From Octopus vulgaris (lineage: Eukaryota), in contig OX597832.1 in assembly GCA_951406725.2 (NCBI GenBank), positions 18,104,001 to 18,168,000 on the forward strand: a stretch of 64,000 bases of DNA. Reading direction: 5' to 3'. The position numbers and the translations under genes were made by a program. Numbering within the stretch: position 1 is the first letter of the stretch; each line of letters begins with the position of its first letter. Below the pieces are notes generated by a model. That model ran no database searches. It was not told the origin of the DNA and saw only the letters and a list, made by a program, of their open reading frames with translations. Positions 4,859-61,933 of this stretch are shown here, one piece after another.

Positions 4859-4859
<1 letters not shown>

Positions 4860-5290
4860 CGGGAAGCTTTATGAAAATAAACAAAAGACGAAGGCAGGTG
4901 GAAAACAAACGAACAATTGTATTAGTATGGCGCTCAGGAAATATAAATAAAACAAGTCTTTAACGTTTCGAGCCTACGCTCTTCAACAGAAAGATACACA
5001 GAGAGAGAAAAACACAGAAAGAGGAGAGAAAAAAATCAACGAATCAACATGGCGATCTGATTTCGGCCAGAGGTCAAAGATCAAACATGAGACGCGAGAG
5101 CGAAATAAGGGGAGATAATAGGGTTGATAAAAGGGTTGACGGACCAGCTAAAAGTGCGTGGGAGGGGTCTGGATGTGTGTATGTATAGGGTTGGTGTATA
5201 TATTAGTATGTATAAGGGTGTGTGTGTGTGTGTGTGTGTGTATGAGAGAGTATTAGTGCGTAGGATTGGTCTGGACGTGCGTAATATATA
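4859..5290 (-). mobile_element. Family A (subtype A1) hammerhead-bearing element abutting (TA)n; Penelope-like non-autonomous fragment
   Basis: Closely similar to 10340-10640; terminus abuts a (TA)n tract; contains hammerhead motif. Confidence 0.75.
4957..4994 (-). ncRNA. Minimal type-I hammerhead ribozyme motif (family A1)
   Basis: Minus strand: TCTTT-CTGTTGA-A-GAGC gtag GCTC-GAAA-CG-TT-AAAGA (stem I TCTTT/AAAGA, stem II, palindromic ACGT stem III). Confidence 0.65.
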
Positions 5291-5297
5291 TATATAT

Positions 5298-5577
5298 CGG
5301 TAAAAACGGTAAGATAACAAAAGATATATATATATATATCGGTAAAAACGGTAAGATAACAAAAGAAAGAAAGAAAGCTCAATATTATGTAAATAGAGGA
5401 AATTTATTTGTTAAATATGTGACAATTATTCGGTAGCCAAGATAAAACTCTGAGTTTTAGATGCCGAGGTGGAAATCCACACCACCATCTAAGATAACCG
5501 AACAGATGATGTTGTGGATTTACACCTTGGCATCCGAAACTCAGAGTTTTATCTTGGCTACCAAATAATTGTCACAT
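5298..5577 (-). mobile_element. Family B fold-back element (palindrome 5417-5577) with duplicated 26-bp tail in (TA)n
   Basis: Homologous to 37221-37517 and 62522-62786; ~75-bp inverted arms; tail CGGTAAAAACGGTAAGATAACAAAAG occurs at 5298 and 5340. Confidence 0.8.
5491..5555 (+). ncRNA. Type-I hammerhead ribozyme motif (family B, degenerate core)
   Basis: AAGATAA-CCGAACA-GATG...CATC-C-GAAA-CTC A GAG-TT-TTATCTT; stem I AAGATAA/TTATCTT. Confidence 0.55.
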
Positions 5578-5587
5578 GTTATTTTAC

Positions 5588-7662: not shown

Positions 7663-8055
7663 GTTTGCCGTCTGATTGAAGGATGGTCGATTGCCAGTGA
7701 TTATGTGCTGTGGTGTAAAATTCGATTCGCCGTCGGTTTATTGCCGAAGATGAAAAGAAGCGCTAAACCAGTGCAGACGATCGCCTGTCTCCACCCAAGA
7801 CATTGAACGGTTGGAGAGGTGGGGTCTAATGTGTTGGAGCACTCAAGTATTTTCAAATAAGGCTATTACATAAAAAAAAAATGGTTTAGTGACCGGCGGA
7901 GGACTGTTCCGTGGTTTTAATGACGAGAGTTCCTATCATATTTTATTCATCGATATTTCTCTTCCATATGAAACAAACTCTGTCTAACATTACGTTCGCT
8001 TAAAAAAAAAAATTTGACAGCGTATATAGATTATGTATCTATCAATATTTATTTC

Positions 8056-8249
8056 GTTGTTGTTGTTGTTCTTGTTATTGTTATTGTTGTTGTCGTAGTC
8101 GTAGTAGTAGTAGTAGTAGTAGTAGTAGTTGTTGTTGTTGTTGTTTTTCTTCTTCTTTTTCTTCTTTTTTCTCTTTCTGTTTCTTTGCCTTCTTTTTCTT
8201 TTTACTCCCCCGCCACCTCCTAATTGGCTGCCTGCTACTGCTGCTGATG

Positions 8250-8283
<34 letters not shown>

Positions 8284-8643
8284 ACATCCCCTCTTTTTCA
8301 TCCTCCTCCTCATCATCATCATCATCACCATCATCATTTCCAAATGAAAAATATTCATATAATTATATCAGCAATATTATTTATTATAAATATTAATATT
8401 TATTAAAAAGATATCTTAATTTTGATATCCTTTTCATCACCATGTTCGCTTTGTCTTATGAAGTAGGAGTACCAAGGAAAAGTTAGGCATTAGTGTTACT
8501 ACATCACCTACATAATAACACGTGCAGCGATCATTAATCTGAGAGAGCAATCAATTCTGAAAGAAAAAAATAAATAATAATATTATCATTATTATTATTA
8601 TTATCATCAGCATCATCATCCTCATCATCATCATTATTATTAC

Positions 8644-8700
<57 letters not shown>
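8056..8700. repeat. Trinucleotide microsatellite mosaics (GTT/GTA/CTA/CAT/ATT)
   Basis: Directly visible. Confidence 0.9.
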
Positions 8701-8701
<1 letters not shown>

Positions 8702-9067
8702 CCTATGAATATTAATCCAGTGGTTAATCCATTAAGCATATGTTCTCACAAAAGACATGCTGGGTAGGCTGGTGGCCATTTAACCGCATCAAAGAAGGAA
8801 ACTCAATTAGCTTCCTATGATTAAGGCCACGACAACCAACTGCACCGAGGATGACCCTCTCGGAGATCTCGAGTGAGGAACTTTAAAATTAGTTAATTAA
8901 CAATATTGTAAATGCTGCAAGTAATGTGAACAGATGTATATCTGATAACTCAACTTGATAATAGGTGATATCACTGGACATACCACCTGTTACAATTTTA
9001 TAACCTATCCACTGATGTTTTACAGATACACAGAAACATTAGAACAAATAGATATCCCAATAAATAG

Positions 9068-9320
9068 ACATACATACGTACGTACATACATACATACATA
9101 CATACATACATACATACATACATACATACATACATACATACATACATACATACATACATAAATACATATATATATCAACGAGAAAGTGAATAGCTACGCT
9201 GAATTATTGAGAAATCTGCAGTAACTCCATCCAGATTACAAGTTCAGGTTTATGTCTGTAATTATTAGGGCTTTCATACCAATAGGACAAAAGTGAGGAC
9301 AAAGAGAGTGATAGATAGCG

Positions 9321-9416
<96 letters not shown>

Positions 9417-9435
9417 GGATGGATGGATAGATAGA
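9068..9435. repeat. (TACA)n and (GATA)n tracts
   Basis: Directly visible. Confidence 0.9.
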
Positions 9436-10339
9436 GAGAAGGAGAGAGATAGAGAGACGAAGTGACATAAAGTCTATATTAATTATGAACTTGTTTTTCT
9501 CTTACGCTTTCTTCCAACTTTTGTTCGATATCTCTACACGTCCATCAATCTAGCTGTCTCTCTTTCACCAGTTTGCCTTTCACACCCTCTCGTTTTCACT
9601 GTCAGATTTGTTTTTGTTTGATTTTCTTTATTTTTTCATGCCAGGGGGAGAAAGCGGGAAGAGATCTCTGACAACGAAGATATAACCAATCTTGAGGTGC
9701 TGGTCTTAATGCATTCGACGATTTCATTCGTCTAAACATGTTGGACACAAAGCGATGTTTGAGATTGTTATCAACATTATTTAATTCAGTCTTTGTAACG
9801 ACAAAGAGTGATTTTCGAGAGATTGCATATATATTTTTTTTCTTCTTTTTACATCTCATTGAGAGATAAGTTGCTTAATTGTATTGGAAAATATTTCTTG
9901 AACATAGTTGCAAAGTGAAAATTGATGACAGCTAACAAAACTGGATTTAATCATATTTGGAACAAGATTAATAAATATATGAACAAGAAATATAAGATGT
10001 ATGAAGATAAGGCACTAACAATTGCAGTTGCATATTTGTATATTCATTTTTATTTCAAAGATATTTTTAATAATCTTTTTTGTAATTGAGAAATTGCGAG
10101 TGCCAATATATTATTCGCTATTTCTCAGCATTGCAAAAAGATTTCGAATATGTCAAACATATACGGGATTTCTGAGCATTGCAGGGATAACAACTTGCAG
10201 TATAATTGTGGAAGATCTAAGTGAAGCAAAATACAGTATATCATACCTGTAGGTCAAGACTAGAACATTATACTATATATATGGCCTCAGCCGGATGGCT
10301 GAAACAAGTAAAAGAGTAAAAGAGTAAATATACATATAT

Positions 10340-10905
10340 AACGGGAAGCTTTATGAAAATAAACAAAAGACGAAGGCAGGTGGAGTACAAACAAACAATT
10401 GTATTAGTATGGAGCTCAGGAATATAAATAAAACAAGTCTTTTACGTTTCGAGCCTACGCTCTTCAACAGAAAGATACACAGAAAAGAAACACGGAGAGA
10501 AACAAGGAGAGAAAAAAATGCGTGCAGAAGCTAGCGATTCAACATGGCGATCTGATCCTGGCCAGAAGTCAGAGATCAAACGTGAGACGCAAGAGCGAAA
10601 ATAGGGGAGATAACAGGGTCAATAACTTCGCCCCAACATAAGGGTGCGTGTGTGTATAAGTGCGTATGAAAGGTCTGGTCGTGTGTATGTATGTATGATG
10701 TGATGTGTAATGTCGTATGGTGTAGTGTAGAGAGAGGAGATGGGGGGAGAGGGGAGGAGAGATGAGGGAGGAAAGATGCGGGGGGAGAGGGGAGGAGGGA
10801 GGGAAGTGAGAGAGGAGGGAGAAGAGGAAAGGTGAGAGTGAGGAGGGTGAGATGAGGGTGAGGGTGAGAGTGGGGAGAAGAGGGAGGAGGAGGAGGAAGG
10901 GGGAG
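10340..10905 (-). mobile_element. Family A1 hammerhead-bearing element followed by a purine-rich low-complexity segment
   Basis: Homologous to 4859-5290 over ~300 bp; terminus at a TA run. Confidence 0.75.
10438..10475 (-). ncRNA. Minimal type-I hammerhead motif (family A1, GUA cleavage triplet)
   Basis: TCTTT-CTGTTGA-A-GAGC gtag GCTC-GAAA-CG-TA-AAAGA. Confidence 0.65.
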
Positions 10906-10933
10906 ATATATATGTATATATATATATATATAT

Positions 10934-11790
10934 ATATACAAGTGGGCTGAAAAGAATAGCATGCAGTTCAATGCTGAAAAGTTTCAAGCTTTATGCTATC
11001 AGCATGCAAAACTAAATGCCATACCCAATAAATACACGGGACCTGGAGGGATTGCAATCCCAGAGGCACAATCAGTGCGAGACCTGGTTATTTACATGAG
11101 TGATGATGCAACCTTTTATGTGCATGTTGCTAAATTGGCAATGAAATGTAGGCGGCTGATGGAAACCATGATGGTCCTCTGGAGGACACTTATCCTAAGC
11201 CACTTTGACTATTTCTCTCAGCTATGGTCACCATCCAGTGTCAAGTTAATCACAGAACTTGAGGCGATCCAACGAAGCTACACGAAGAAGATAGCCTCTG
11301 TGCAGCATATAAACTACTGGGAAAGACTCTATTCCTTATAGCGTAGGCGAGAAAGATATGCCATAATATACATCTGGAAGATCCTAGAAGGACTTGTCCC
11401 AAACTTTGGCATCGAGAGTTACACAAATGCTAGAATTGGGTGCCACTGCATAGTGCCAATGACTCCAAATTTGCCATCAAGATATAGGACAAGATACTGT
11501 GATAGCCTGGGCTTCAGAGGCCCACAGCTCTTCAATATCCCAACGAAGAATCTGAGAGACCTGCAAGGGGTGGATGCAGATGTCTTTAAAATAAAACTGG
11601 ATCTCTTCCTGTCAGGTGTCCCAGATGAACCAACTTCACGGCAGGAGGTGCAGATGAGGGCACCAAATAGCAATTGCTAAAAAGCATTCATGAAGTAAAT
11701 TTATGTAGCATCACCAAATGGCGGTGCCCCAGCATGGCCACAGCTCGTGAGCTGAAACTAGATAAAATAAAATAAAAAGATAAAAAATTA
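10934..11790 (+). mobile_element. 5'-truncated CR1/L2-group LINE: ORF2 C-terminus (disrupted) + 3' UTR + A-rich tail
   Basis: KWAEKNSMQFNAEKFQ..., LEAIQRSYTKKI...YWERL, RRERYAIIYIWKILEGLVPN, GPQLFN...FKIKLDLFLSGVPDEP are typical post-RT motifs; stops and deletions present. Confidence 0.9.
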
Positions 11791-11797
11791 AAAAATA

Positions 11798-11958
11798 TGC
11801 ATATACATATAATTATACTATACATATACAAATATATATATGTATATATATATGTATATGTACATGTATATATATATATGTATATATGTATATGTATTTA
11901 TGTATATATATATATAAATACATATACTTATATATATACATATATATATACATACATA

Positions 11959-12024
<66 letters not shown>

Positions 12025-12060
12025 TATATGTATACATATATACCTTTGTATATATGTCAA
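11798..12060. repeat. Degenerate (TA)n/(TACA)n tract
   Basis: Directly visible. Confidence 0.9.
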
Positions 12061-12484
12061 TATGTGCATATATCTTTACATATATAGGTGTGCATGTGTG
12101 TCTGTGTGTAACTGTATATGTGTCTATAAATCTGTGTGACCCTGTGTGTGTGTGAGGTGGGGTGGATGTGTTCGCAACCTTTTAAAATGTTTATATGAAT
12201 ACACCTAGGTACGAGTGTTTCTTTTTTTATGAACAAATACGAAGTGTTAGGCACGTAAAAAAAAGTGTAAATACCTTAAGCCTTGCACAAACACATACAC
12301 ACATCCATTTTGACAGACATATAGAAATAGATACATCCGCATGAAGACATAGGTTATAAAACAGATTGCATTTAAAAGCAAAGAAATATATAAAGGGTGC
12401 TTTTCGAATGAGTATCTTCAAAAAATCTGATCCTGGTATTATAAGAAAAACAACACGTTTATATAGCAAAACATTTAAAAAAAA

Positions 12485-12498
12485 CTACTACTAATATA

Positions 12499-12557
<59 letters not shown>

Positions 12558-12624
12558 TAATACTAATGCTACTACTACTAATAATAATAATAATAACAAG
12601 AACAAGAACAACAACAACAACAAC

Positions 12625-12673
<49 letters not shown>

Positions 12674-12690
12674 TTTATAATAATAATAAT
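12485..12690. repeat. (CTA)n/(ACA)n/(AAT)n compound microsatellite
   Basis: Directly visible. Confidence 0.95.
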
Positions 12691-12994
12691 GAAAAATTAT
12701 AAGCCAATGGGTATTGAAAGGAAAGTGTGTCGGAGTAGAGGACATACTTAGTTTCGGACGTTGACACATATCACACCCTACCAAACAAATACTCGCATTC
12801 ACTCTCCATTCCTGACTTTTCTACTTTTGTTTAACATACTACCTCTCTATCTGTTCGTCTCTCTTCCTTTCTTTCTGTGTCTCTGTCTCTCTCTATATAT
12901 ATGTATATATATGCATGTGTATATGCATATAGATGTAGGTATGTACATATATGTATGTAGGTATGTAATGCATATGTTTTATTTGTTAAATTGT

Positions 12995-13031
<37 letters not shown>

Positions 13032-13222
13032 CTTAGATATATATGTCTAAATATATATATATATATGTGTGTGTGTGTGTTTGTGTGCATGTATCTACAT
13101 GTGTGTGTGTGTGTGTGCATGCTTGCGTTCATGGTTGTGTGAGTGTGCTCTCCTTATGTCTCACTCTAATTGCGTCAGCTTATCACTCCGTACATAAATT
13201 AAACTCATAACCTATCTATCTA

Positions 13223-13620
13223 TAGGAGTGGCTGTCTGGTAAGTAGCTTGCTTACCAGCCACATGGTTCAGGGTTCAGTCCCATTGCGTGGCACCTTGGG
13301 CAAGTGTCTTCTACTAGAGTCTCGGGCCGACCAAAGCCTTATGAGTGGATTAGGTAGACGGAAACTGAAAGAAGCCCGTCCTATATATGTATATATATGT
13401 TTGTGCGTGTGTGTGTTTGTGTGTCTGTGTTTATCCCCCTAGCATAGCTTGACAACCGATGCTGGTGTGTTTACGCCCCCGTCACTTAGCGGTTCGGCAA
13501 AATAGTCCGATAGAATAAGTACTGGCCTTACAAAGAATAAGTCCCGGGGTCGAGTTGCTCGATTAAAGGTGGTGCTCCAGCATGGCCGCAGTCAAATGAC
13601 TGAAACAAGTAAAAAAAAGA

Positions 13621-13621
<1 letters not shown>
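13223..13621 (+). mobile_element. SINE-1 (tRNA-derived head, internal microsatellite, LINE-like tail), near full length
   Basis: GGAGTGGCTGTCTGGTAAG...GGTTCAGTCCC head; tail GGTGCTCCAGCATGGCCGCAGTCAAATGACTGAAACAAGTAAAA; many copies in window. Confidence 0.9.
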
Positions 13622-13673
<52 letters not shown>

Positions 13674-14199
13674 TATCTGTCTGTCTCTTTATCGATCTAT
13701 CTCTCTATGTAATCTATCTACTATCCATCTGTTTACAGGTATATACGTATGTATGTATGTATGTATGTATTCATGTGTATATGCATGTAAGTATATATAT
13801 ACACCTACATACATATCTGCTTATATGTACATATCCATAGCTTGCTCTGTCTCTCCCTCTCTGTCTCTGTCTCTCAGTGGCTATCTGTCTGTGTGCCTCT
13901 CTCTCTTTCATTTTGTCTCTATTGGTCATCTCCGCAATAAAAATAAATAAAAATCTATCATTTTTTAGCACTGGTTTTCCAGATGCTTTTCGTTATAAAC
14001 AATAATCATTGCTAAGTATGTTTGCTCATTCGTCTCTATCTGACTAGATTTCTTTCATCATTTCTTGGCTAAATCTGTGTTTGCCTTCATTCTCACCGTA
14101 ATGTTAAGTATGACTAATATGGAGTGAAAGTCATAAAAAGAAAGATATATACAAACGCATGCTAAGGTCGTCATTTCCAAAGATACGCTGTGATGTATG

Positions 14200-14690
14200 C
14201 GTATAAGTATTTATACGTATACTCATACACAAATAAATGTGTATATGCGTGTATATATATATGTGTGTATATGTTTATGTATGTATATATTTATATATAT
14301 ATGTATATATATATATATATTTATACATATGTATATATATATATGTATGTTTATTTTTGCATATATATATATATATATATATTTATACATATGTATATAT
14401 ATATATATATATTGATACATATGTATATATATATATGCTTTGTTTATTTGTGTGTATATATATATATTGATACATATGTATATATATATGTTTATTTGTG
14501 TATATATATATATATATATTGATACATTGTGTATATATTTATATTGATACATATATATATATATATGTATGTTTATTTGTGTATATATATGTATATGGAT
14601 ATAAATGTATATGTGTGTATATGTATATATGTGTGTCTTTGTGCGTGTGTGTGTGTGTGTATGTTTGCATCTATATATGTATATATGTGT
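14200..14690. repeat. TA-derived degenerate minisatellite (~50-bp higher-order unit)
   Basis: Recurrent TTGATACATATGTATATATA...TGTTTATTTGTGT units. Confidence 0.75.
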
Positions 14691-16499
14691 AATAGTATAT
14701 AATGGTTTTGTTTACCAATGAAAGACGCTTAGCACGAATCCTTTTATGCTGGATTTTAAGACTGAAATTGAGAAAAAGGAAACAAGATAAAAGGGGATAC
14801 CGAATTAGAGATAGAGAGGGGGAGGAGAGGGAGAGGGTTTAAGAGTGAGAGAGAGAGGGGGATGGACAGAGGAATAGATATTTTGAGAGAGAAGCTGACA
14901 TAGATATTGGATGAAAGAAAGTCAAAATGTTGTTTGCGTCATGTCGCTGGCCTAAAGGTGAAAGTTAATAATTATCGTATTTAGAGAAAAAAAAAGTGAG
15001 GATTAATATAACAATAGATACAACAGCTACAACAATAACAGCAGCAACAAGAACTATGATATAGACAAAATTATCGGTTACAGTAGTAACAATAAAAAGG
15101 ACAGTACAAATAACACTATCAGCAACATTAATATAAAAAAATGACATTTTTTCAAGGTTAGAAATAATTTGTCGCAGAAAGGAACATTGGAAATTTAATG
15201 GAGTTTGGTATATTGCTAATAATCTTTAGTCGTCGAGAAAATAAATGTATTTGTAATCCTTCATCAGGCCCTGAATAAAGACCTGGGCAAGCGAAAGGTC
15301 CCTTTTTTTTTAAATAGATAAACGTAATGCGTTGTTATTCCTGTCTCTTGCAGGACTATACCATATCGAGATGAAGGCGCTGAAGTGGTCAGATATGACG
15401 CTAGTAGTAAATGTTAATTCCACCGTTATTTGGAATATAAAAAAAAAAACACTCTTTTCCTTTTTGGTTCTGATAAAATCTTTTGAATTTATCTATTTAG
15501 CGTTGGTTGGAAACGTGCTAACGTTTCTGCCAGCTCACTGCCTTAGAAAAAGCATTTTCTAACAGAGAAAAATGCCATTACAATGAATTATCGTTCGCGT
15601 ACCTAAATTTTTTAAATTTCACTGTGGATAAATGCCAGCAATGCCCTTCTCAGTCTCTCAAATATTCTAAAGTATAAATAGAAACAATCGGGGTCGGGGA
15701 TTAGGGCTGCCAAAAATTCTAAAGTTTCATTTTTATAGCATGTAAATCGTTGTTATTATGTCAAACGGTCGTATGCCGAAATTTGATCAAATGCGCTTAT
15801 TTTTAGGTATTTAATTTTGATTGCAATAGCCGGTTATTTTGGTCAAACTATCTTATCTCCAGCTATTTCAGATGACAATTGAATATGTGCAGTACAACGG
15901 TTTACCATTCTTCAAAAATGAAGTAAGTTCCGCATATGGCAGTTTCGCAAAGATATTTCTGACGGCAAATATACATGTATGGCGTTATGGTTTTATGCAC
16001 TGAACAAAATATCATTGTTAAGTGGAAACTGTTGCGAATTCAAAACGAAATTAAATGGTAAATCTATTTTGGACTTATGACACTTTTGAATAATAGCAAC
16101 GAAATGTATTTATGAGGAGAAAAATATTGAAAAATATCAATACATCAGAGAGTGATCAATAAAAATGACGGTTGTCTTGGAATGTGCGAAAAATAACAGA
16201 CAAATCTCCCTTAAATAACTCAAATTTTCCCCTGAAAATATTAATACCGATAAGTATCATCCCCTGATTTTCAAGCGCCAAACATTTGGCCAAAATATGT
16301 CTGCAGTGGGATGATGTGGAAGGGTGGGTTGTATAAGAAATTTTTCAAAAATATCTTTCATCTAAAGATGCTGCACCTCACCCCACCCAATCATTTCGAA
16401 GGGTGTGGTTTAAAAAGAGTAGGGACAATCCCCGTCGAAATATAGAATTTCTAACTTTTATGGTCCTCTTGATCCGAAAAGCTCTTTTTTTTATCGAAA

Positions 16500-16800
16500 C
16501 TCATCTTCCACCCAATCGGAAAACATTTTCCCTATAAATTTCTTTATAATCTTAATCTATGACGTTTAAAAGGTATTTGTATAAACCCTAATTCAAAGAT
16601 ACCCATTTTCCTGAAAGTTATGACGGAAAAAATTCGAATCGTGTGCATTTTCAGAAGGTCTTCTCTCCACACCCTCCAAAAATCCTTTCCCATAAATCCC
16701 TATATACCCTAAAGCCACAATATCTAAGCGGTATTTGTAGAAAATTTCGTAAAAATGTATCCTTATTTCTGGATATTATGAGGCATCAAAATCGGGAGAT
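16500..16800. mobile_element. Two degenerate ~160-bp tandem units, possibly an internal array of a non-autonomous Helitron/Helentron-type element
   Basis: TTCCCTATAAAT...GGTATTTGTA...TTATGA at ~16528 repeated at ~16687; family assignment is inference. Confidence 0.35.
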
Positions 16801-17242
16801 TATATTTTCATTACATGTTTAATTCACTCATTGTTTGCAATGGTCTCCCTCTTTCTCTCTCTCTCTCTCTCTCTGTTACTCTCCCTTTCACACACAGACA
16901 CTGCAAAGATTACCAATGGGCTGCTGAATTGAAATCTCTGTGATGCTATGAGGGGAAGTCGAAAGTTAAAAAAACTGCCTCGCACTCCATAGTTGGAATA
17001 ACTTGTTGTTTGTTTAAACAAGTGATTATGATTGTAATAAAGAATGACAGCAATATTTACTAAGTAATTGAGCACTATTATACACAGAAATAATTAAACA
17101 TAAAGTATCATAAACATTGCTAGAATTGAGAATCAAATGGGGAAATATTATCAAGTGCCCGGCTGAAAACCGCCCGGAGGGTAGCCTTACTACTATACTA
17201 TTTATGTATGTGTATACGTATATACATACATATGTTTATATA

Positions 17243-17527
17243 TGATCACGTTACCGGCCAGACCATCAGATGTTCTTACACATCGCTGGTCACAATGCGT
17301 TCGCATTGCTTTAGCCTTCGAATGACGCCATCCTGCTGGCTAAGCGAGCAGGCCAACAGAAGAAAGAGTGGTGAAAGAGTACAGCAGGGATCACCACCCC
17401 CTGCCGGAGCCTCGTGGAGCTTTTAGGTTTTTTCGCTCAATAAACAATCACAACGCCCGGTCTGGGAATCGAAACCGCGATCCTACGACCGCGAGTCCGC
17501 TGCCCTAACCACTGGGCCATTGCGCCT

Positions 17528-17531
<4 letters not shown>
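17243..17531 (-). mobile_element. tRNA-derived SINE (head H4, tail Z)
   Basis: Minus strand GGAGGCGCAATGGCCCAGTGGTTAGGGCAGCGGACTCGCGG...GGTTTCGATTCCC. Confidence 0.85.
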
Positions 17532-17578
<47 letters not shown>

Positions 17579-17601
17579 CACATATATATATATATATATA
17601 T

Positions 17602-17848
17602 ACTCTCTCTTTACTCTTTTACTCTTTTACTTGTTTCAGTCATTTGACTGCGGCCATGCTGGAGCACCACCTTTTAGTACTTATTCTATCGGTCTCTTTT
17701 TGCTGAACCGCTAAGTGACGGGGACCTAAACACACCAGCAATGCCAGGGGGACAAACACAGACACACAAACACACGCATACATATATATATACATACATA
17801 CGACAGGCTTCTTTCAGTTTCCGTCTACCAAATCCACTCACAAGGCAT
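17602..17848 (-). mobile_element. SINE-1, internally deleted
   Basis: Matches SINE-1 3' half. Confidence 0.85.
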
Positions 17849-17897
17849 ATATATATATATATATGTATGCATGTATATATATAAATATATATGTATA

Positions 17898-18022
17898 TGG
17901 AATTGTTTGTGTTTCTGTGTTTTTACCGATCGGCGCTTGACAACTGATGTTGGTGTGTTTATGTCCCCGGAATTAGCGGTTCGATAAAAGAGCCCGATAG
18001 AATAACTACTAGGCTTACAATG
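17898..18022 (+). mobile_element. SINE-1 fragment
   Basis: CGCTTGACAACTGATGTTGGTGTGTTTATGTCCCC...TTAGCGGTTCG block. Confidence 0.75.
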
Positions 18023-18189
18023 AATGCGCGTAAGTGTATTAATGCCTGTTTTCATTCGATCACATTGCTTTTAAAATTTATAGTTTTTTAAAAAATAATG
18101 TCGTATTCTTTTCCATTGCTTTATATAACTTATATTACACGACATCCAGTCCAGTACAATTCTTCCCCATCTTGATCACATAGTTGTAC

Positions 18190-18253
<64 letters not shown>

Positions 18254-18266
18254 TGTATTTATATAT

Positions 18267-18335
<69 letters not shown>

Positions 18336-18367
18336 AATACACAAAATATATATGTATATATATACAT

Positions 18368-18415
<48 letters not shown>

Positions 18416-18610
18416 ATATACACACGTACATACGATCAGTAACCTGTCCCTACAATACGTACTCTCCATGGGAAAGTTGGCTAAATTCATAAAGAGACAC
18501 AAAACACTCACAGGAAAATCAATAAAAAACATCAAGGAAACGTTTAGAAAATGTATAAAATTTAAGAAAAGAAATGATAATGAAAATAACCATGATAATA
18601 ATATTAGTGG

Positions 18611-18676
<66 letters not shown>

Positions 18677-19400
18677 TAATAATAATGGGTTTTGAGCCAA
18701 CAATGCATAGTAACGTATTTTAATAGCCACACGCCATCTGACCATGCAAATTTCCTCGGTCTCTGTAGCTCCCAGTGGGCGGTCGATTTAACGGCCAAAG
18801 GCTTTTCTCCCAGTGTGAGAATCGTGTGAAATCCTGACCGTATAGTGAACGTGTATGAACGCGTGTGTGTACGTGTGCGCGCACGTGTGTGTATGAGTGT
18901 GTGTTAGAGAGAGAAAGTGTGTGTAAGAGAGAGAGCGTGTATATTTGTGTGTGTATGAGTATGTGCGGGTGGAGCGTGTGCAAGTGTGCGTTTTTAAATA
19001 TACTGTATGTACATTCTTATTAATCTTTGCATACATACAATCATATATAAATATATAAATGCTTATATAAATGTAATTTCGTAACGCATACACAGCACAA
19101 GCTTAAATATATTTAAAATAATTGTATGCGTATGTATGCGCGTACGTACACAAACGCACGCACACACACACATAGGTATGAACGCACACATATGTATGGA
19201 AAGATGTGTGTGAGTGTTTGTGTATTTATATATATAAATATATATATATATATAACTGTGCGTGCGTATATATTTTACACACACACATATATATGTGTGT
19301 GTATATATATATATATATATATAGATCGATAGATAGACAGATAGATAAACAGACATTCAGAGAGACAGAGGGATAGATAGACAGACAGGCAGACAGATAA

Positions 19401-19493
<93 letters not shown>

Positions 19494-19687
19494 CAGATAG
19501 ATAGATAGATATACACACGGCAGGAACACGTGCACGAACTCGGGACAATCGAATACATATAAAGTAATTATTAGCACATATAGATAAAACATACACATAA
19601 ATATATAAGGTACGAGAAGGTTAATGCTGACCAGTATATGAAGGTAGAAAGGTTCTCACCAAATGAAACTTCGACTTACTCGTAAAA

Positions 19688-20757
19688 TGCGAGCGGGTGC
19701 CGTAATGTTTCTGGCTTTGGGTAAAAGATAATAGAGGAGGATCAATTAATTATGATTTTATTCAACATACTCTCCTCTAAGATTCACACACAGTGATCCT
19801 TTAATTATTCTAAGCCCTGACAAAAGACCTCGGAAATTTTGGACTCCAAACAGGTTTCTGTAACAAACGATCATTTCCGAATCGGATGAAAATTTCGTTT
19901 ATTCTTCGGTCTTTCGCATAGTTCCTCAAACAGAGAGAAGCATTGATGGTGCAACCCTTTATAAAATTTACTCCATCTTTGTCCAAAACACTGAAGCCAG
20001 AATTTTTCCAGCCGACTTCTGGTTCTAAAACTACATGGGACGCGAGGAACGGCTGTGATTCCATCCCATTCATAGCTGCTTGGTCTGGAGGTCATGATGA
20101 TGAAGCCAAGTTTCATCGATGGTGACTAAAAAGCCATACAATCAGCCTCTCCTACTCAAACCGACCCAAAATTTACATTGACGTCGTCAAACGGACGCGC
20201 TTCTTCTAAGCGTTCAGGCATTATTGCACCCGTTAGGTGGAAATCTTTCTCATGTCCAGAATATTGCGGATAACGTGATCAAATCTTTCGCGGGAAATCC
20301 TCCGAGTCTCAGCTATGATTTTAGCTTAATTGCGGTGGCTTCGAGAATCCTGACGTGTACAACATCGGATTTTGTGCTCTGTAGTCGCGGAAGTTAGCTG
20401 TTCTGAACGAGGTTTATGTGTGACAACGAAATGTTCAAACCTTGACACCCAGATTTTCACTCCGGAGTCAGATAAGCTGTCATTCTTCAAGACTTCCTTC
20501 ACATTGCTATGGATTTTCGCCGCTCCTTCCTTTTACAAAAGGATGAACTTCATGACCTCCCATGCTTTACTTTTACAAAATCCACAGTCGGAGTTCCCAT
20601 GATTCCTTAGATCTGCAAACAAAGAGAAAGATTTATTGTATACTATCATGTTTGCATATATTCTCCCAAATAACTGCCCTGCCTAGCCTGTGAATGTAGA
20701 AAGTTCTTCTCTTTCAGGATACACTTGAAGCCACGAAGCTTTCAGCAAACTCTTGTA
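19688..20757 (-). mobile_element. Decayed mariner DNA transposon with both TIRs; transposase pseudogene
   Basis: Minus strand EVMKFILL*KEGAAKIHSNVKEVL..., ILDMRKIST*RVQ*CLNA*KKRVR, LVTIDETWLHHHD. Ends are degenerate inverted copies of TACGAGGGCGTGCTGAAAAGTTCCTGGCTT. Confidence 0.85.
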
Positions 20758-21019
20758 TGAGAAGACTAGATTATTAAGATTATCTTAATGTTTGGAAAAT
20801 CATTTAAAAAAAATAATTTCATGAAGATTCATGGATACAACGAGTGAAGGCAAGAGCTTGTATCAACGTTGGATCAGAAAAGAAGTAGAAATGTGGCTTC
20901 AGACCGTGTTACACATTCGTGACTACTTTAAATGTGAGGTTTCTATTGTTGTAACTTGACGCATCGGCCAAGTACGGTAACAAAGTAATTGAAACATTTG
21001 ACTCAGCAGTATATAACAA

Positions 21020-21310
21020 TGTATTGAGCAGCATAGCAAGGGGTTTGCTTCCAAACCTCACGATCAAGAGTGTGTCTATGTGCATCGGTAAATTTCTGTT
21101 TCTGTTTTCTCCCAACCACTGCTTGTCAACCGGTGTTGATTCGTCTACGGTCCCGTAACGTGGGGTTTCGGCAAAGAGATCAATAGAATATCTATTATAC
21201 TTTAAAAACACCTACTGGGATTGATTTGCCCGAGTAAATCCTCCACGTCGATGCCCCAGCACGACCGGAGCCTACTGACTCAAACAATAACGAGATCAAA
21301 GAGAAAAAGT
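21020..21310 (+). mobile_element. Old diverged SINE-1 copy
   Basis: Degenerate match to SINE-1 3' half and tail. Confidence 0.65.
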
Positions 21311-21369
21311 ATACATATATACACACATGTATACATACTTATCTATCTACCTGTCTGTCTATATATCTA

Positions 21370-21410
<41 letters not shown>

Positions 21411-21476
21411 CATATATATATATAAATGCATACATACATTCATACATATATACATTCATTCATGCATGCATACATT

Positions 21477-21519
<43 letters not shown>

Positions 21520-22096
21520 GGCACCAATTATGGATTCAAGTAATGGGATAGTACTCATAATGAAATCCCTTTAACGTATTATTCTACAAAACATATATAC
21601 GATTCACGATACAAAGGAAATAATTAGGGAGAGTATAAAGGGATAAATGTCAGTAAAATTGATGAAATTGTATTTGATAAGAAAATTATAATATCACGAC
21701 AGATTGTTTCGTAACTTAAAAACACGTAAAGAATTTATGTTATTATATTTCATTATCAATATTTTACTTATCGGCATTAATAGAAAATCCACCGCACCGC
21801 CTTAAAAAAAAAAAAACAAAGAAACGAACCACCTTCAAAATAATGCAGAATTTATGTTACGTCTTCAGGTGAAAGAAAGTCTTTCTATTTAACAAAGTCT
21901 TTTGCGTAAGTTGAAGTATTTTTTTGCATTTTACATTCATACAGTCATCCAAGTAATTCATTTATTATTAAATATAATATAAATTATTTACATATTTTGA
22001 AGTTACGAAACTATTTGTCTTAATATTATAATTTTTTTATTGTTAAATAAAATTTCACCAAACCATATCTGTGTCATTTATGCCCTTATATATATG

Positions 22097-22158
<62 letters not shown>

Positions 22159-22334
22159 GTGTCTGTCTTGTGGAATACATTCGAATATAAAATGAGTATA
22201 TTGATGGTATATTATAAGGTGACATCACCATCATCGTAATCATGACTGTATCTTCCAAAGTTTGTAGTGCTTAATTCTCAAGAAGTGTAGCAATTTTGTC
22301 AGCGAATACTTGAATTTGTTGGTACATATACTTA

Positions 22335-22374
<40 letters not shown>

Positions 22375-22499
22375 TGTGTGTGTGTGTGTGCACGTGTGTG
22401 TAAGTGTATGTGTGAGTGTTGTGAGTGTGTAGTACATGTATTTATATCCATACACCAAACCCATCCAGAGACACCCATAGGTATATATGTGTATATATC

Positions 22500-22566
<67 letters not shown>

Positions 22567-22585
22567 TTGTATATGTATACCGATG

Positions 22586-22629
<44 letters not shown>

Positions 22630-23399
22630 CATTTATTTATATCTACGTATGCATATATATGTTTGTGCATTTGTTTGTGTTTGCGTTCTTATCTTTTTCT
22701 TTAAACACGATAAGAAAATACGTACTAAAGCGAAAGAGCAATTCATATACAAATAAAGCGAAATTAAAACTAAGCAGACATAAATAGATATTTCTTTTAT
22801 TTTCTTTTCCACTTTCATAAATGATGTTCCTTTATTGATTGTGCCTGATCTAACGTTACTGGTCTTACACGTATTTACATTGACGTTGTGCCAGTCAAAT
22901 GCTTTTAAAATTTTCATCTTTTTGACCAAATTACCTCCTCTATTTCGATCGATTTTATTCGTTTCGTAGTTTTCTTCTTTTTTATTAGTGAGACGCCTTC
23001 TTCTTGAACTCACCCAGATTATTATCATCATTGTCGTCTGTATCACTTCCACCTCGGCAACAGTTTTCTCTTTTCCCCGGTTGTGGGATATATTTAATAA
23101 CTGAAACACACACACAGACACACACATATATATATAATAGTGTATTGTCTACCTATTAAATTTCTTGGTACTCACTAAGATTGCATATAATACGATAATC
23201 AGCGATGTTGAAAGTGCATAGCTGCTAACGAGTACATTGAGAAGTATCAGAAATGTAAAATATTATATGAAAATTCATAATAAAATGTGAAAATTCAACC
23301 GTTACGTCAGCAAAATTTCATTGCAAATGCCATTCGGATTTAGATGCAAGAGAATATACATACACACACACATACACATACACACACGCACACACATAT

Positions 23400-23463
<64 letters not shown>

Positions 23464-23478
23464 GTATGCACACACAAA

Positions 23479-23887
23479 TACTCTTTTACTTGTTTCAGTC
23501 ATGTGAATGTGGCCATGCTGGAGCACCACCTTCAGTCGACCAAATCGACCTCAGGACTTATTCTTTGTAAGCCTAGTACTTATTCTATCGGTTTCTTTTG
23601 CCGAACTGCTAAGTTACGCGGACGTAACCACACCAGCATCGGTTGTCAAGCGATGTTATGGGGGGGGGGGGGGCAAACACAGACACACACAAATATATAC
23701 ACACACATACATATAAAAATATATATACATATACGACGGGCTTCTTTCAGTTTCTGTCTATCAAATCCACTCATATGGCTTTGGTCGGCCCGAGGCTATA
23801 GTAGAAGACATTTGACCAAGTTACCACAGAGTGGGACTGAACCCGGAAGCATGTGGTTCGTAAGCAAGCTACTTACTACACAGCCAC
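23479..23887 (-). mobile_element. SINE-1, near full length
   Basis: Reverse complement of 13223-13621. Confidence 0.9.
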
Positions 23888-24158
23888 ATTGCTTGGTGCT
23901 TACGATGTCAGTGTTAGGCTTATGATCGTATGATAGCGATTTCGATTCCTGAACCTGGCATTACGCTGTGTTCTTGAGCAAAATTTTCTATGTCGTATTG
24001 TTTGGTTTACTCGGACCGACATCTTGTCCGGTGGGGAAGATTATATATTTGCCACAAAATCCGGTAAGGTGGTCTTAAGTGAAGTGACTAGAACTCGTGA
24101 AGGACATCTGGTCTACGCTACCTGTGTCTCGAGAATATGCTGTCAGTTATCCTAATGT

Positions 24159-24210
<52 letters not shown>

Positions 24211-24218
24211 AAGAAGTA

Positions 24219-24468
24219 TCATTCCGTCGGTTACGACAACGAGGGTCCTAGTTGATACGATCAACGGAACAGCTTGCTCATGAAATTAACGTGCAAGTGA
24301 CTGAACAATCCACAGACACGCGTACCCCTAACGTAGTTCTGAGGGAGATTCAGAGTGACACAAAGTGTGACAAGGCCGGCCCTTTGAAATACAGGTACAA
24401 CTCATTTTTGTCAGCCGCGTGGACTCACAATCTTACAATTGTGTGCCGAATGCCCTAACTAAGCCACC
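24219..24468 (-). mobile_element. SINE-3b (head H3, tail Y), internally deleted
   Basis: Matches 38387-38706. Confidence 0.8.
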
Positions 24469-24791
24469 TATATCTGTAAATCTATACGCAACATACAATA
24501 TGCAGCAAACAAGCGATAGACCTGATTATGTATTTTGCGGGAGCCGCTACTAAAAGCATTTGACGAATGACGTAGGCAATAAAGGAAACATAAAGAAGAA
24601 AAGAAGAAAAACAAAGAATAGGCAAAATTAGGAAATTGCAACCTGATACATTGAACACTGTTAACTAATCATTATGAGTTGGTATTTAAAATATATTTCA
24701 TAATTATTCGTGAAATGGTTTCAAGAAATATGTATATGTGAGTGTAAGTGCGTGTATGCATGATAAGTGTGTATACAGGCATACACATATA

Positions 24792-24832
<41 letters not shown>

Positions 24833-24842
24833 AATAAATAAA

Positions 24843-25090
24843 TGCGCCCTTTTAAATCCTAGCCAGGCTCACGGTCCCGCTTTCCCGGTTTCAATAGCGT
24901 ATGTATTCCCCAGCTGGACGGGACGCCAGTCCATCGCAACGTTACTCATTTTTGCCAGCTGAGTGGACTGGAGCAACGTGAAATGATCTGTTTTTCTCAA
25001 GAACACAACGCGTCGCCCGGTCCAGCAATCGAAACCACAATCTTACGATCATGGTGCTGACACCCACACCACTAAGCCACGCGCCTCCAC
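24843..25090 (-). mobile_element. SINE-3a (head H3, tail X)
   Basis: Reverse complement of 40575-40821; tRNA-like head GGCGCGTGGCTTAGTGG...GGTTTCGATT. Confidence 0.85.
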
Positions 25091-25607
25091 ACACACACAC
25101 ATACACACACATTGACAAATTAATACGTAATCTTTACTCAAGTCCGTTGATTATGTTTATTCAAAATTAATAACATGGTGAATTATGTACAAACGATACG
25201 ACCCTTTGTTTGTAATTGCCTATGATATTTAAATAAGGTAGTGTAATTAAATTGGTTAATTTTTGCAAAAACGTGGTGTCAATGTCCTGTTTTCTTTTTT
25301 CAACATACTCGTGATTGTTGTATATTAATTCCAGACATTTTCTCACACCTTGGCAGTAATTTAGCACAACTTAAATATCATCACACACGATTTTTCGCAC
25401 TAAACTCTGAAGGTTATTGTTTGCAATTGTATGTATATATATACAAACAGAGACAGATATATGTCGATTGAAATCTGTCTCGCTCCTAAAGGACAATCAG
25501 AAGTTTATCTAGGTTCCTGTAGCTTTTAAACGATATCTGCGTTTGAAAGTAAAAGACTCCTTTGTGAGCATTACACCAGGGTTAAACGTTTTCAAGTACG
25601 TACTCCC

Positions 25608-33162: not shown

Positions 33163-33304
33163 AATCTATTTATTTATATATCTATCTATCTATCTACATA
33201 TCTATCTTTCTACCAATGTATCTATCTATCTATCTATCTATATATCTATCTATCTATCTATCTATCTATCTCTATATATACATATTTATATGCATATACG
33301 AAAT

Positions 33305-33505
33305 GTAATCATATGTGAATCGTTTGCGATTATCTCCCTCCGTCTTCCATTCTTCTGGACTTTCGTCTGTTTCCGAAGAAGAGCGTTGCACGAAACGTTA
33401 ACCACCTTTCTCTCCCTCCCTAAGCGTCTACTAATACTTTACATATACCACATCGTCGGGTTGCAATTTTCTATGTGTTTGTTCTTTTTGGGGATTTACT
33501 ATAAA
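33305..33505 (+). mobile_element. Family A (subtype A2) element with degenerate hammerhead at 33369-33403
   Basis: GTTT-CCGAAGA-A-GAGC gtt GCAC-GAAA-CG-TT-AAC; flanks match 61552-61760. Confidence 0.65.
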
Positions 33506-36597: not shown

Positions 36598-36652
<55 letters not shown>

Positions 36653-36860
36653 TTGTGTGTCTGTGTTTGTCCCCCTGGCATTGCTTGACAACCGATGCTG
36701 GTGTATTTACGTCCCCGTCACTTAGCGGTTCGGCAAAATAGACGGATAGAATAAGTACTGGGCTTACAAAGAATAAGTCCCGGGGTCGATTTGCTCGACA
36801 AAAGGCGGTGCTCCAGCATGACCGCAGTCAAATGACTGAAACAAGTAAAAGAGTAAAATA
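36428..36860 (+). mobile_element. SINE-1, full length
   Basis: Complete head GGCGCAGGAGTGGCTGTGTGG and tail GAAACAAGTAAAAGAGTAAAA. Confidence 0.92.
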
Positions 36861-45694: not shown

Positions 45695-45969
45695 AATGGT
45701 AAACAACACAACAGGGGAATCGACGTAAGCTTAAATAATAAACAGCGATATGGGGAAATATTACTGTACACATAAAGATATAGACTTATAGATATGGTCA
45801 AGTATGGTTTATCAAATATGTGTATATATATATAAATATAAATATATGTACGAATCAAAATGTGACCGCGTGTGTACCTTTGGCGATTTTTTTCCTCCGT
45901 CTTCCCTTCTCTGGATCTTTCCTTTTCCCATGTTTCTGTCCTCGCGTTGTTGTGTTTTCATCTTTGGAT

Positions 45970-46033
<64 letters not shown>

Positions 46034-46138
46034 TAATCCAAACAAGAAAACACAAAAAAAAAACAAAAACACAACAACGCGAGGACGTGGAACAAATATA
46101 GTATTATTGGACGCTCAGGAAAGCAGGGAAGAGGGAGG

Positions 46139-46173
46139 GTTTAACGTTTCGAGCGGAGCTCTTCGTCGGAAAC
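46139..46173 (-). ncRNA. Minimal hammerhead motif (family A2)
   Basis: GTTT-CCGACGA-A-GAGC tcc GCTC-GAAA-CG-TT-AAAC; stem I GTTT/AAAC. Confidence 0.6.
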
Positions 46174-46406
46174 ATAGGAGGAGGGAAGATGAGGTCAGAT
46201 TTTGAAACATATATATTATTACTTCTTACTGACTCTTCCTGTTTGACCTATCTTCCCTCAACCTATCTTCTATTCTACTTCAACTCTTTTTCCTTTTCTT
46301 TCTCTTTTCCTTGTTGTCGCAACAAACCACACCTAACCACATCTATTTTTCCGATCTTTTGGCGATCTTTTTTCCTCTATCTTCCTCATCTATTGGACTT
46401 CCCTCA

Positions 46407-46442
46407 ATTAACTGAAAAAGGGCCTTGCTCGAAACGTAAAAT
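46407..46442 (+). ncRNA. Degenerate minimal hammerhead motif (family A)
   Basis: CTGAAAA-A-GGGC ctt GCTC-GAAA-CG-TA. Confidence 0.45.
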
Positions 46443-46973
46443 CACCTTTCCTTTCCTGAGCGTCCGATAATATTTGACATGAACCACGTCCTCGCGTTTT
46501 TGTTTGTTTTGTGTTTTTTGTGCTTGTCTTTCGTTTTTTTGTTTATATGTGTGTATATATGTATGTGTGTATATATATGTGTGTGTGTGTGTGTGTGCGT
46601 CTGTGTGTATTTGTATACACAGACACACACACACACACTCTCACTTAAGCAAACATAAAAATATGCATATATATACACACATATAGATAGATAGATAAAT
46701 AGGTAGATATTCACAATGCTATGCCTTTACAACTTTTCCCACATCCCTGCCTGTTGCCTATTGCTGTTAATATAAACAAATGATGTATAAGATATCTGTA
46801 CAGGCAAATTATATTTTGGTAGAATATCTCAGAAACAGACCTTTATATATTAAATGTAAACATTATTTTTCATATATATTAATTCACAAAAATTGCAGAA
46901 AGGAAAGACACGTATTCTGTTTAGACAATGTCTCAGTGTTAACGATTGTTACATCAAGAGAGTCATTTATACA

Positions 46974-55745: not shown

Positions 55746-55925
55746 GGGAGAGTTCACGTAAAAAAAAACAACAAAAGACGGAGACAGGTGGTGTATAAAA
55801 CAAACAGATGTATAACACTCAGGAAATTGAAAAAAGTCTTTTATGTTTCGAGCCTACGCTCTTCTACAGAAAGGGACACAGAAAAAAACAAGGAGAGAAG
55901 CATGGAGAGAAAAAAAGGAGAGATA
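55745..55925 (-). mobile_element. Family A1 element with hammerhead motif at 55838-55873
   Basis: CTTT-CTGTAGA-A-GAGC gtag GCTC-GAAA-CA-TA-AAAG; terminus abuts (TA)n. Confidence 0.7.
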
Positions 55926-56449: not shown

Positions 56450-57111
56450 TACGAGGGGCGTTCAATAAGTAATGCCTCTGACCCACTTGCAGTTGTTTGA
56501 TCTAGCTGAAAATTTACATGTGTAATTATTTATATCTCTATAGATTAAGTGGCAAATTACAGCTCTGAACTAATTGTAGTTTCTGATATACAGGTGTTTG
56601 AACTGAGTCACGTGTGAAATGGAGCCTGTTGAGTGTTGAGCAGTGATCCGGTTTTTGTATTTGAAAGGACGCACACCACGGGAGACTTTTGATGAAATGA
56701 AAGTAACTTATGGTGATGATGCCCCATCATATGACCTTGTAAAACGCTGGCATCGTGAATTCAAACATGGTCAGAACTCTGTGGAAACAGCTCCCAGATC
56801 TAGTCGCCCCCCTTCTGCCATTGATGAGGCATCTGTCCGTCAAGTTGAGGCTGCCATTTTGGAAGATCGACGCATAACTATTCGCCAAATAGCCCATGAG
56901 GTCAAGTTTAGTACCGGGTCTGTGGAACCTATCATTCATGACCATTTGCATATGCAAAAGGTGTCTGCCAGATGGATTCCCAGGTTGCTCACACCTTTCC
57001 AGAAGCAAGAACGCGTTGAGTGCTCGAGGATGAATTTGGAGATGTGCCAAGAAGATGAGTCAAAATTTTTCAAAAGACTGATTACACAGGATGAAACCTG
57101 GGTCCATCACT
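56450..57111 (+). mobile_element. 3'-truncated mariner transposon (left TIR + transposase N-terminal half)
   Basis: TA-CGAGGGGCGTTCAATAAGTAATG left end followed by transposase-coding sequence. Confidence 0.92.
56619..57111 (+). pseudogene. Mariner (Mos1/SETMAR-like) transposase pseudogene
   Basis: MEPVEC*AVIRFLYLKG...VKRWHREFK...SARWIPRLLT...ITQDETWVHH; premature TGA at 56637 and truncation after the first catalytic Asp. Confidence 0.92.
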
Positions 57112-58179
57112 GGTATTGTCAGAGTCACAGTAGAAACATCGCACGTCTTTACTAGAATCTTTGTGTAGGGAGTTTTGCTATGCCTGGCGGCACCGTCGCT
57201 TCCTTGGCACGCCCTCCAATGTATCAACCCTGTAATTAGACTGGTAATTATTTTATTGATATCAGTAGGAGTGTTGTGAACTGAACTTGGATTGGGTTTC
57301 AAATCCAAAGGGAAATGTCAAGTGACCATATTTCACAGTATAAAGGATCACGTTGTACTGATTTTCCCAGTACAATGGGCTACCAACGAAAAACCAAAGG
57401 AAGAAAGAAAATACAAGCAACAAAAGCTGTCATTTTTATGTAACGATATCCGTAACGACATGGTATTATATTTCGCAACTAAACTACATAACGTCCGGTT
57501 CACTGCGATTATGCAGTGTCTGGGACGATGTATTAGGCGATAAGTCAGGGATAACCAAATCCTTGAGACATAATTGTTAAACTGAGAATATAAAAAAAAG
57601 AGACGGAATGCTATGCCTTTTTATTCACAGGTACGCATACCACGTAATCAGGTTAACACCACAAAATGGCGTCATTTGTGTGCATTTAGAGAAGTCTAGC
57701 CTCTTGTAAGCATTAACAATATATTTCCAATATAAGAATATCTTGCATGATTTTTATGAATCAATTTTCTTCTCGTTATTGATTACATTGATTTTTATTT
57801 TAGTTCAGTATCTGTTTTGATCGAGATTATCAATGACCCCAGAATGGCCATGTATTGATACAATATGTTACGACAAATCGTTGCTCACGATCGAGTGTTG
57901 CTTTGTAACATGTATCACACTACAACTGACGTCTTTCATTAGACCGATGTAATGAAAGACTGTGACTAACTGAATCCTAGCCTACTCAACCTTCACCGAC
58001 AACTTAGCTGATACATATTTTTTAGTTGATTTACATATTTTTAAATAAAGCAGGAATCGAAATTTGACCGAACATATTACCTTCAAACCGTCTTCTTAAT
58101 TCGTATATAACATTATCTTCCCTCAAGCAAATCATACACAAACACTTCATATATATCAATACAAACGCACATACAGGCA

Positions 58180-61551: not shown

Positions 61552-61755
61552 GTAATGTCACCTCGTGTGTACCGTTGGCGATTTTTTTCCTCTGTCTCCC
61601 CTTCTCTGGATCTTTCCTTCTCCTATGATTCCGACGAAAGCTCTGCTCGAAACGTTAAACCCTACTTCTTTCCTTCTTTCCTGAGCGTCCAATAATACTA
61701 TATTTGTTCCACGTCCTCGCGTTGTTGTGTTTTTTTTGTGTTTTCTTGTTTGGAT

Positions 61756-61894: not shown

Positions 61895-61933
<39 letters not shown>

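Follow-up and report, generated by a model that had tools for sequence, protein, structure and literature searches.

Eight short repeats in the window (the whole 64,000-nucleotide stretch of Octopus vulgaris DNA analysed here) carry a motif that is built like a minimal hammerhead but holds the canonical core in no copy. Judged from its letters, it is likely a new core variant of a motif known from Penelope-like elements (PLEs). The first-pass annotation had listed these eight motifs, and we recovered every one at its position and on its strand (8/8); its count of eight copies holds for the intact ones, and a ninth copy without the motif lies at 45853–45973. The window is AT-rich animal DNA with about 26% simple repeats, and no recognisable host exon was found among the 150 of 198 frames scanned with Pfam. 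Together, the nine copies make up about 2.2 kb, or 3.4% of the window (bounds by eye); the PLE share of the O. vulgaris genome is 6.83% (PMC13282606 supplement).

The motif-bearing copies fall into two subfamilies, A1 (copies 4957, 10438, 55838 and 62004) and A2 (copies 33369, 46139, 46407 and 61627). A1 motifs have the loop GUAG and a UCUUU/AAAGA stem I; A2 motifs have a 3-nt loop and a GUUU/AAAC stem I. The features are as follows.

4859–5283, minus strand: whole copy 4957, about 425 bp; (TA)29 at its 3′ end, (TA)7 at its 5′ end
4957–4994, minus strand: A1 motif; core CUGUUGA (U6); cleavage site predicted between 4962 and 4961
4929–4940, minus strand: second conserved box of copy 4957, CCTGAGCG-like; 20–30 nt behind the predicted cut; in both subfamilies
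10438–10475, minus strand: A1 motif; core CUGUUGA; copy about 10341–10720
33368–33404, plus strand: A2 motif; core CCGAAGA (C4); stem II with one mismatch; copy about 33301–33499
45853–45973, plus strand: ninth copy, A2; motif gone by internal deletion; tail-to-tail with copy 46139 across one (TA)28
46138–46174, minus strand: A2 motif; core CCGACGA; copy about 46030–46205, ending in (TA)28; head-to-head with copy 46407
46407–46443, plus strand: A2 motif; core CUGAAAA, C3–G8 pair broken, stem I lost; copy about 46220–46542
55837–55874, minus strand: A1 motif; core CUGUAGA, palindrome ACAU; copy about 55746–55916, ending in (TA)11
61626–61661, plus strand: A2 motif; core CCGACGA, stem II lacking its first base; copy about 61555–61760, ending in (TA)20
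62003–62040, plus strand: A1 motif; core CUAUCGA (decayed), palindrome ACAU; copy about 61929–62106, 3′ end cut by another repeat

Copy lengths range from 171 to 425 bp (bounds by eye): the annotated size of about 200 bp fits five of the eight copies, but three are longer. The 5′ ends vary and the 3′ ends are common to the copies, whose tails are U-rich and then turn into (TA)n. A long pure (TA)n run follows directly in four of eight copies, 104–121 nt after G12; against random positions this placement has a probability of about 2e-4, for a distance window picked after the fact. The other 3′ ends meet a short TA-rich run (2/8) or an AT-rich run (1/8) or are cut off by another repeat (1/8), so that the annotated direct passage of most 3′ ends into (TA)n applies, in its strict form, to these four copies. 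The 5′ flank is TA-rich in six of eight copies. Between 45853 and 46542, three family copies lie within 700 bp, tail-to-tail over (TA)28 and then head-to-head, the first of them without the motif. Abutting the 5′ end of copy 4957 at 5284–5366 is a 42-bp unit that ends in (TA)7 and is exactly doubled, possibly the tail end of a different element that targets TA.

The eight motifs stand far above chance. A relaxed hammerhead descriptor allowing one core mismatch gave six matches in the window, where 100 block-wise dinucleotide shuffles averaged 0.04 (maximum 1). Trained on the eight motifs, a covariance model found exactly these eight at 57.6–75.9 bits, with the next match at 16.2; it recovers its own eight by construction, and the informative part is that the window holds no ninth intact copy. 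Rfam on the whole window gave microsatellite-driven miRNA noise alone among the 150 of 307 matches listed.

The canonical CUGANGA core, or its form with the U3–A8 swap, occurs in none of the eight copies, and the descriptor with zero mismatches has no match in the window. The cores read CUGUUGA (twice), CUGUAGA, CUAUCGA, CCGAAGA, CCGACGA (twice) and CUGAAAA, with U at position 6 in four of four A1 copies and C at position 4 in three of four A2 copies; the fourth A2 copy has A8, which breaks the C3–G8 pair. Over all copies, the departures fall at U4, A6, G5 or G8. G12–A13–A14–A15.1, U16.1 and H17 are kept in 8/8 copies, the C3–G8 pair in 7/8 and the G10.1–C11.1 pair that closes stem II in 7/8, and an extra base follows A9. 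Stem II is paired in 96.8% of cells and its loops vary (GUAG, UCC, GUU, CUU and UCU), exactly as the annotation described. The annotated GAAACGU palindrome for helix III is borne out in six copies, where ACGU is intact (computed self-duplex energy about −3.5 kcal/mol), but two copies have ACAU. At least five of eight copies carry further damage, CpG decay included. An alternative register with UUGAAGA as the core was rejected: it forms neither stem and would move the variable base away from N7.

These positions have been altered elsewhere. A type III hammerhead subjected to deep scanning had low activity with every single or double change in the CUGA turn, except the C3–G8 swap (available text of PMC9901934), and the available text of PMC3088659 puts A6C activity under 0.1 per minute and describes U4C as lowered in activity with viroid infection still possible. 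Weak cleavage is thus expected for U6 and C4 cores, given the published mutagenesis of this turn. Canonical minimal PLE hammerheads are also weak (available text of PMC4209133). The term "ribozyme-bearing" in the first-pass annotation was therefore too strong: each copy departs from the catalytic core at sites of reported low activity, and no parent element was found for the family.

U6 is the family state of A1, not decay of single copies. We placed contigs of four of the 24 listed public runs (from coded organisms A, B (two runs) and C) on 4859–5218 at 80% likeness and listed differences from 3%. At position 6, no letter other than U reaches 3% in the four runs and three coded organisms, though depth there is among the highest, while N7 varies at 8–10%, H17 is U or A, and two CpG sites vary at 1–7%, a pattern that argues against single-copy decay. 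Outer stem I positions vary too, and the ACAU form of the palindrome accounts for 3–7% of depth. At the 3% cut, the four runs give no variant for C3, U4, G5, U6, G8, A9, G12–A15.1 or U16.1; run contigs drop rare variants and A2-type copies are too distant to place, so that these data are silent on canonical copies elsewhere in the genome.

The same runs bear on abundance. Depth peaks on the motif in all four, drops stepwise towards the 5′ side and continues to 5218; run X8 is RNA by guess only, and its peak on the motif is not counted as expression. Per DNA-type run, 188–340 contigs fit the motif and then diverge at 4954 or 4993. The high copy number proposed by the annotation agrees with the 7,772–25,445 contigs placed per DNA-type run, a contig number that is not a copy count. 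Under five organism codes, 20 listed runs contain 68% or more of the words sampled from copy 4957.

Between A1 and A2, conservation is concentrated on the motif. In a MAFFT alignment, identity is 85.9% over GAAACGUH, 74.4% over stem II and its loop and 62.5% over the core, the least conserved motif part; the second box reaches 79.5%, against 45.0% upstream, 39.2% in the spacer and 41.5% in the tail. The compensatory stem I switch reported in the annotation is real as a C–G to G–C change, but it is the only two-sided change among nine pairs in the window copies, and the observed covariation values are reached by 28–473 of 500 shuffles. Across 17 family representatives, stem I pair 1.2 is G–C in 10, C–G in 3, U–A in 2 and A–U in 1. 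The same set has 29 Watson–Crick cells against 15.6 when shuffled (0 of 10,000), for representatives that are not phylogenetically independent.

We consider it highly probable that the eight repeats are the cut-off 3′ ends of Penelope-type elements. This PLE reading, already proposed by the annotation, is well founded, if on indirect grounds: the layout follows the published consensus, the arrangement in the window is PLE-like (head-to-head for 46139/46407, tail-to-tail for the ninth copy and 46139, variable 5′ ends), and RT + GIY-YIG frames of other animals are followed by identical stem II and helix III letters. PLEs are described as inserting into (TA)n, as truncated at the 5′ end and as leaving inverted copies, and a (TA)n insertion preference is known for Neptune and Naiad PLEs (available text of PMC8557442). 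Neither an RT nor a GIY-YIG remnant turned up in the window: the 150 of 198 frames put through Pfam matched mariners only, a tblastn search with 120 PLE proteins returned a single match at E=0.025, and a profile search had none. The lack of a PLE frame is expected, because the copies are truncated.

As a proxy, metagenome contigs were scanned for stem II followed by GAAACGT with the core and stem I left free, which gave at least 120 loci (16 of 64 parts), 119 of them scored and one at a contig end. Upstream of the pattern, 33 of the 119 have CTGA and 23 have CCGA; all 56 are in low-GC contigs and none has G at position 17. At least three stem I pairs form in 34 of these 56, versus 2 of 46 high-GC chance matches. 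Among the remaining 17 low-GC loci are decayed forms and a single CUGC, the 46 high-GC loci behave as chance, and none of the 119 scored loci has a CUGU (U6) core. A PLE protein match lies within 600 nt upstream in 14 of 118 loci, seven in the same orientation (three of them CCGACGA) and seven inverted. In L012, L039 and L073, the GIY-YIG end lies about 150–165 nt before the motif. The relatives of the proteins at these loci are 806-aa-type RT + GIY-YIG proteins with a CxxxxCxxC linker, two of them named from corals. Pfam on 100 of 130 comparison-locus frames found host genes and no PLE domain.

Because it lies behind RT + GIY-YIG matches at these loci, the motif type of stem II plus ACGU is a feature of PLE 3′ ends, and true PLE ends can carry the C4 core. 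The likeness of the window copies to these coral-type elements extends over 27–31 nt of the motif and no further; as the motif was the search pattern, it makes no case for shared ancestry of the elements. Twenty-two of the 23 CCGA copies have one downstream signature, which is present also in eight CTGA copies (coral-type: L012:1-3941, L013, L039, L044, L073, L119 and related loci), so CpG decay of CCGA may account for some of the coral-type CTGA copies. The strict motif pattern has no match in metagenome and viral contigs. Its single match in prokaryote genomes, L001, was dismissed as lacking a core and being at chance level. Three viral matches to a looser pattern are all high-GC and without a core.

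With moderate confidence, we read the two subfamilies as 5′-truncated 3′ ends (pseudo-LTRs) of an EN-bearing, probably (TA)n-targeting PLE whose altered-core motif is predicted to cut slowly, as a dimer only, with its fold kept by selection. A full-length parent PLE, itself unseen, would make RNA and an RT + GIY-YIG protein. Going by PLE biology, that protein would nick a (TA)n run, copy the RNA from its 3′ end and usually stop after 170–430 nt, and sometimes an inverted second copy would be left. The motif lies about 105–120 nt from the 3′ end and is kept between subfamilies with barely alignable flanks. Two motifs are predicted to pair via ACGU/ACGU into helix III and to cut after H17; in the published model, the palindrome joins a pair of minimal motifs, which then cleave weakly after H17 (available text of PMC4209133; review PMC6765202). 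The U-turn letter U4 or A6 is replaced, with U6 the family state in three coded organisms, and selection would hold the fold and tolerate a weakened core. Given a PLE origin, residual cleavage seems somewhat more probable than its absence.

The main rival accepts PLE 3′ ends but takes the motif to be non-cutting, with a fold retained because it signals to the element's protein or promotes RNA dimerisation; we regard this as rather unlikely. Different U-turn letters are changed in the two subfamilies, yet stem II, GAAA and the palindrome are retained; between them, the core is the least conserved motif part, and Naiad PLEs spread without canonical hammerheads (available text of PMC8557442). U6 also lets the core zip into a rod in a computed fold. 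Against a non-cutting motif, G5, G8, A9, G12, C3–G8 and H17 (never G) are still held, which is what the chemistry needs, and U4C and A6C variants elsewhere keep some activity (available text of PMC3088659). In general, folding calculations return rods or intermolecular stem swaps at lowest energy and no hammerhead dimer; such predictions carry little weight, since the motif needs a partner.

It is less likely still that the repeat is a non-autonomous unit of about 200 bp (a PLE-derived SINE-like element or solo pseudo-LTR) copied whole, and not a set of random truncations. Copies 33369, 61627, 62004 and the ninth copy do start at a near-identical point, about 90–100 nt before G12 and just after TA-rich sequence, and the window holds no coding remnant; but three copies extend 120–220 nt further upstream and two are shorter, run depth declines stepwise towards the 5′ side, and head-to-tail arrays of the retrozyme kind are absent. 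That the motif is a dead passenger, amplified by chance from broken-core master copies and conserved by descent only, is improbable: CpG decay and other damage in at least five of eight copies and complete loss of the motif in one would suit it, whereas motif identity between subfamilies is almost twice flank identity, the motif alone is common to many run contigs, and the C4 core recurs in coral-type PLEs. As for a tRNA-derived SINE, which would have a tRNA-like head with pol III boxes and an A-rich tail, no tRNA gene was called (a blunt test for SINE heads), and the tails are U-rich, then (TA)n. Finally, a non-PLE repeat end that resembles a hammerhead by chance is very improbable, for although the parent is unseen and an Rfam search of 4900–5100 with E up to 10 gave no hammerhead, the shuffle test, variation at N7 and H17 only, which bears out the register, and identical stem II and helix III letters behind PLE frames all speak against it.

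Returning to the preferred reading of slowly cutting PLE 3′ ends, one close structural likeness is to coral-type PLEs with a C-terminal EN (L012, L013, L039 and L073; proteins such as P0088). They have A-GAGC-loop-GCTC-GAAACGT as in the window, CTGACGA and CCGACGA cores, a motif that follows the GIY-YIG stop close to the 3′ end, and inverted pieces. They differ in stem I (GCT/AGC), in H17 (C), in lacking a U6 core and in flanks that do not align. We take them to be Neptune-like by their CxxxxCxxC linker.

With the minimal type I hammerheads of metazoan PLEs (Cervera & De la Pena 2014; available text of PMC4209133), the window copies have in common a U-rich lead-in, a short stem I, the base after A9, G10.1–C11.1, GAAA, a C–G palindrome that replaces helix III, an AU-rich tail and mostly single dispersed copies with some close opposite-strand pairs. 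Apart from the core, the window motifs follow the consensus given there, U-rich / stem I / CUGANGAH / G...C / GAAAN-palindrome-NUH / AU-rich. The rows of Fig. S3 available there have CUGANGA or UUGANAA cores, versus CUGUNGA or CCGANGA in the window copies, and the descriptor given there would miss all eight because it demands ^cuganga. The natural U4C (viroid) and A6C (phage Bcep176) hammerheads are altered at the same positions and have low activity (Perreault 2011, PMC3088659); in its available text these are rare variants of full hammerheads and A6U is absent, whereas in the window copies the change characterises a whole, very abundant repeat family. The Naiad PLEs of Octopus (Craig 2021, PMC8557442) are alike in their (TA)n preference and, in its available text, have no canonical hammerhead; the last ~700 nt of the available Naiad_Obim and Naiad_Ovul sequences are unlike the window 3′ ends (by eye and string search). 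Animal non-LTR retrozymes are likewise short non-coding hammerhead repeats tied to PLEs, but they form head-to-tail tandem arrays with canonical type I motifs (available text of PMC7229834 and bioRxiv 10.64898/2026.07.22.740005), whereas the window copies are dispersed or inverted, minimal and non-canonical, with no array.

Since minimal hammerheads are already known as a widespread trait of PLE ends, finding them here is ordinary; the new part, as far as we have seen, is the fixed U6 and C4 cores. A literature search, with figures and Repbase/Dfam outside its scope, gave for U6 or C4 hammerhead cores only the U4C mention of 2011 (available text of PMC3088659), for A6U one twister-ribozyme paper and no hammerhead, and for the motif strings of the family no paper. 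Cores of U6/C4 type were not found in the available text of PMC6155905, PMC7229834 or bioRxiv 10.64898/2026.07.22.740005, the last without its supplements.

The role of minimal PLE hammerheads is itself in question: their cleavage in vitro is weak, and Naiads do well with none. The family described here is highly abundant and has retained the fold, the dimer-forming palindrome and the guanines of catalysis, while changes in the CUGA turn have become fixed. With normally invariant letters altered, the family is a natural test of whether such motifs must cut RNA. Strict CUGANGA descriptors miss whole families in genomic hammerhead counts. Tentatively, and as a possibility short of our preferred reading, a repeat among the most abundant of this genome, spread over several species with its hammerhead U-turn broken in two ways (A6U, U4C), could reflect protein-assisted or altered cutting, or a non-catalytic signal for PLE mobilisation, in a large class missed by CUGANGA searches. 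If the variants merely cleave slowly, they are a modest addition to a known class.

Beyond copy 4957, the second box, CCTGAGCG-like, is found at 10411–10422 (minus), 33417–33428 (plus), 46110–46121 (minus), 46453–46464 (plus), 55814–55825 (minus) and 61678–61689 (plus). Its predicted pairing probability with the 3′ strand of stem II is 0.05–0.93 in five of eight copies, without covariation. By such pairing, the box may possibly act as an off-switch.

Other repeats share the window. Those at 5410–5580 and 62525–62720 were considered as a second hammerhead family and rejected, being related long inverted repeats, MITE-like simple hairpins that mimic CTGAAGA ... CGAAAC. Broken frames at 10943–11677 (plus) presumably resemble the C-terminal part of a LINE protein; database searches gave this fragment no protein support. 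Further dispersed families lie at 15510–15530, 54636 and 58804, and at 13435–13709, 23389–23663, 36614–36857 and 62110–62353, and we take them to be SINE-like. One of them truncates the 3′ ends of copies 62004, 10438 and 33369. Mariner transposase remnants (HTH_48) are present at 56640–57152 (plus) and 20329–20532 (minus), the first 83% identical to a mantis-shrimp protein, and the relatives of the mariners in the window come from marine invertebrates, Octopus included.
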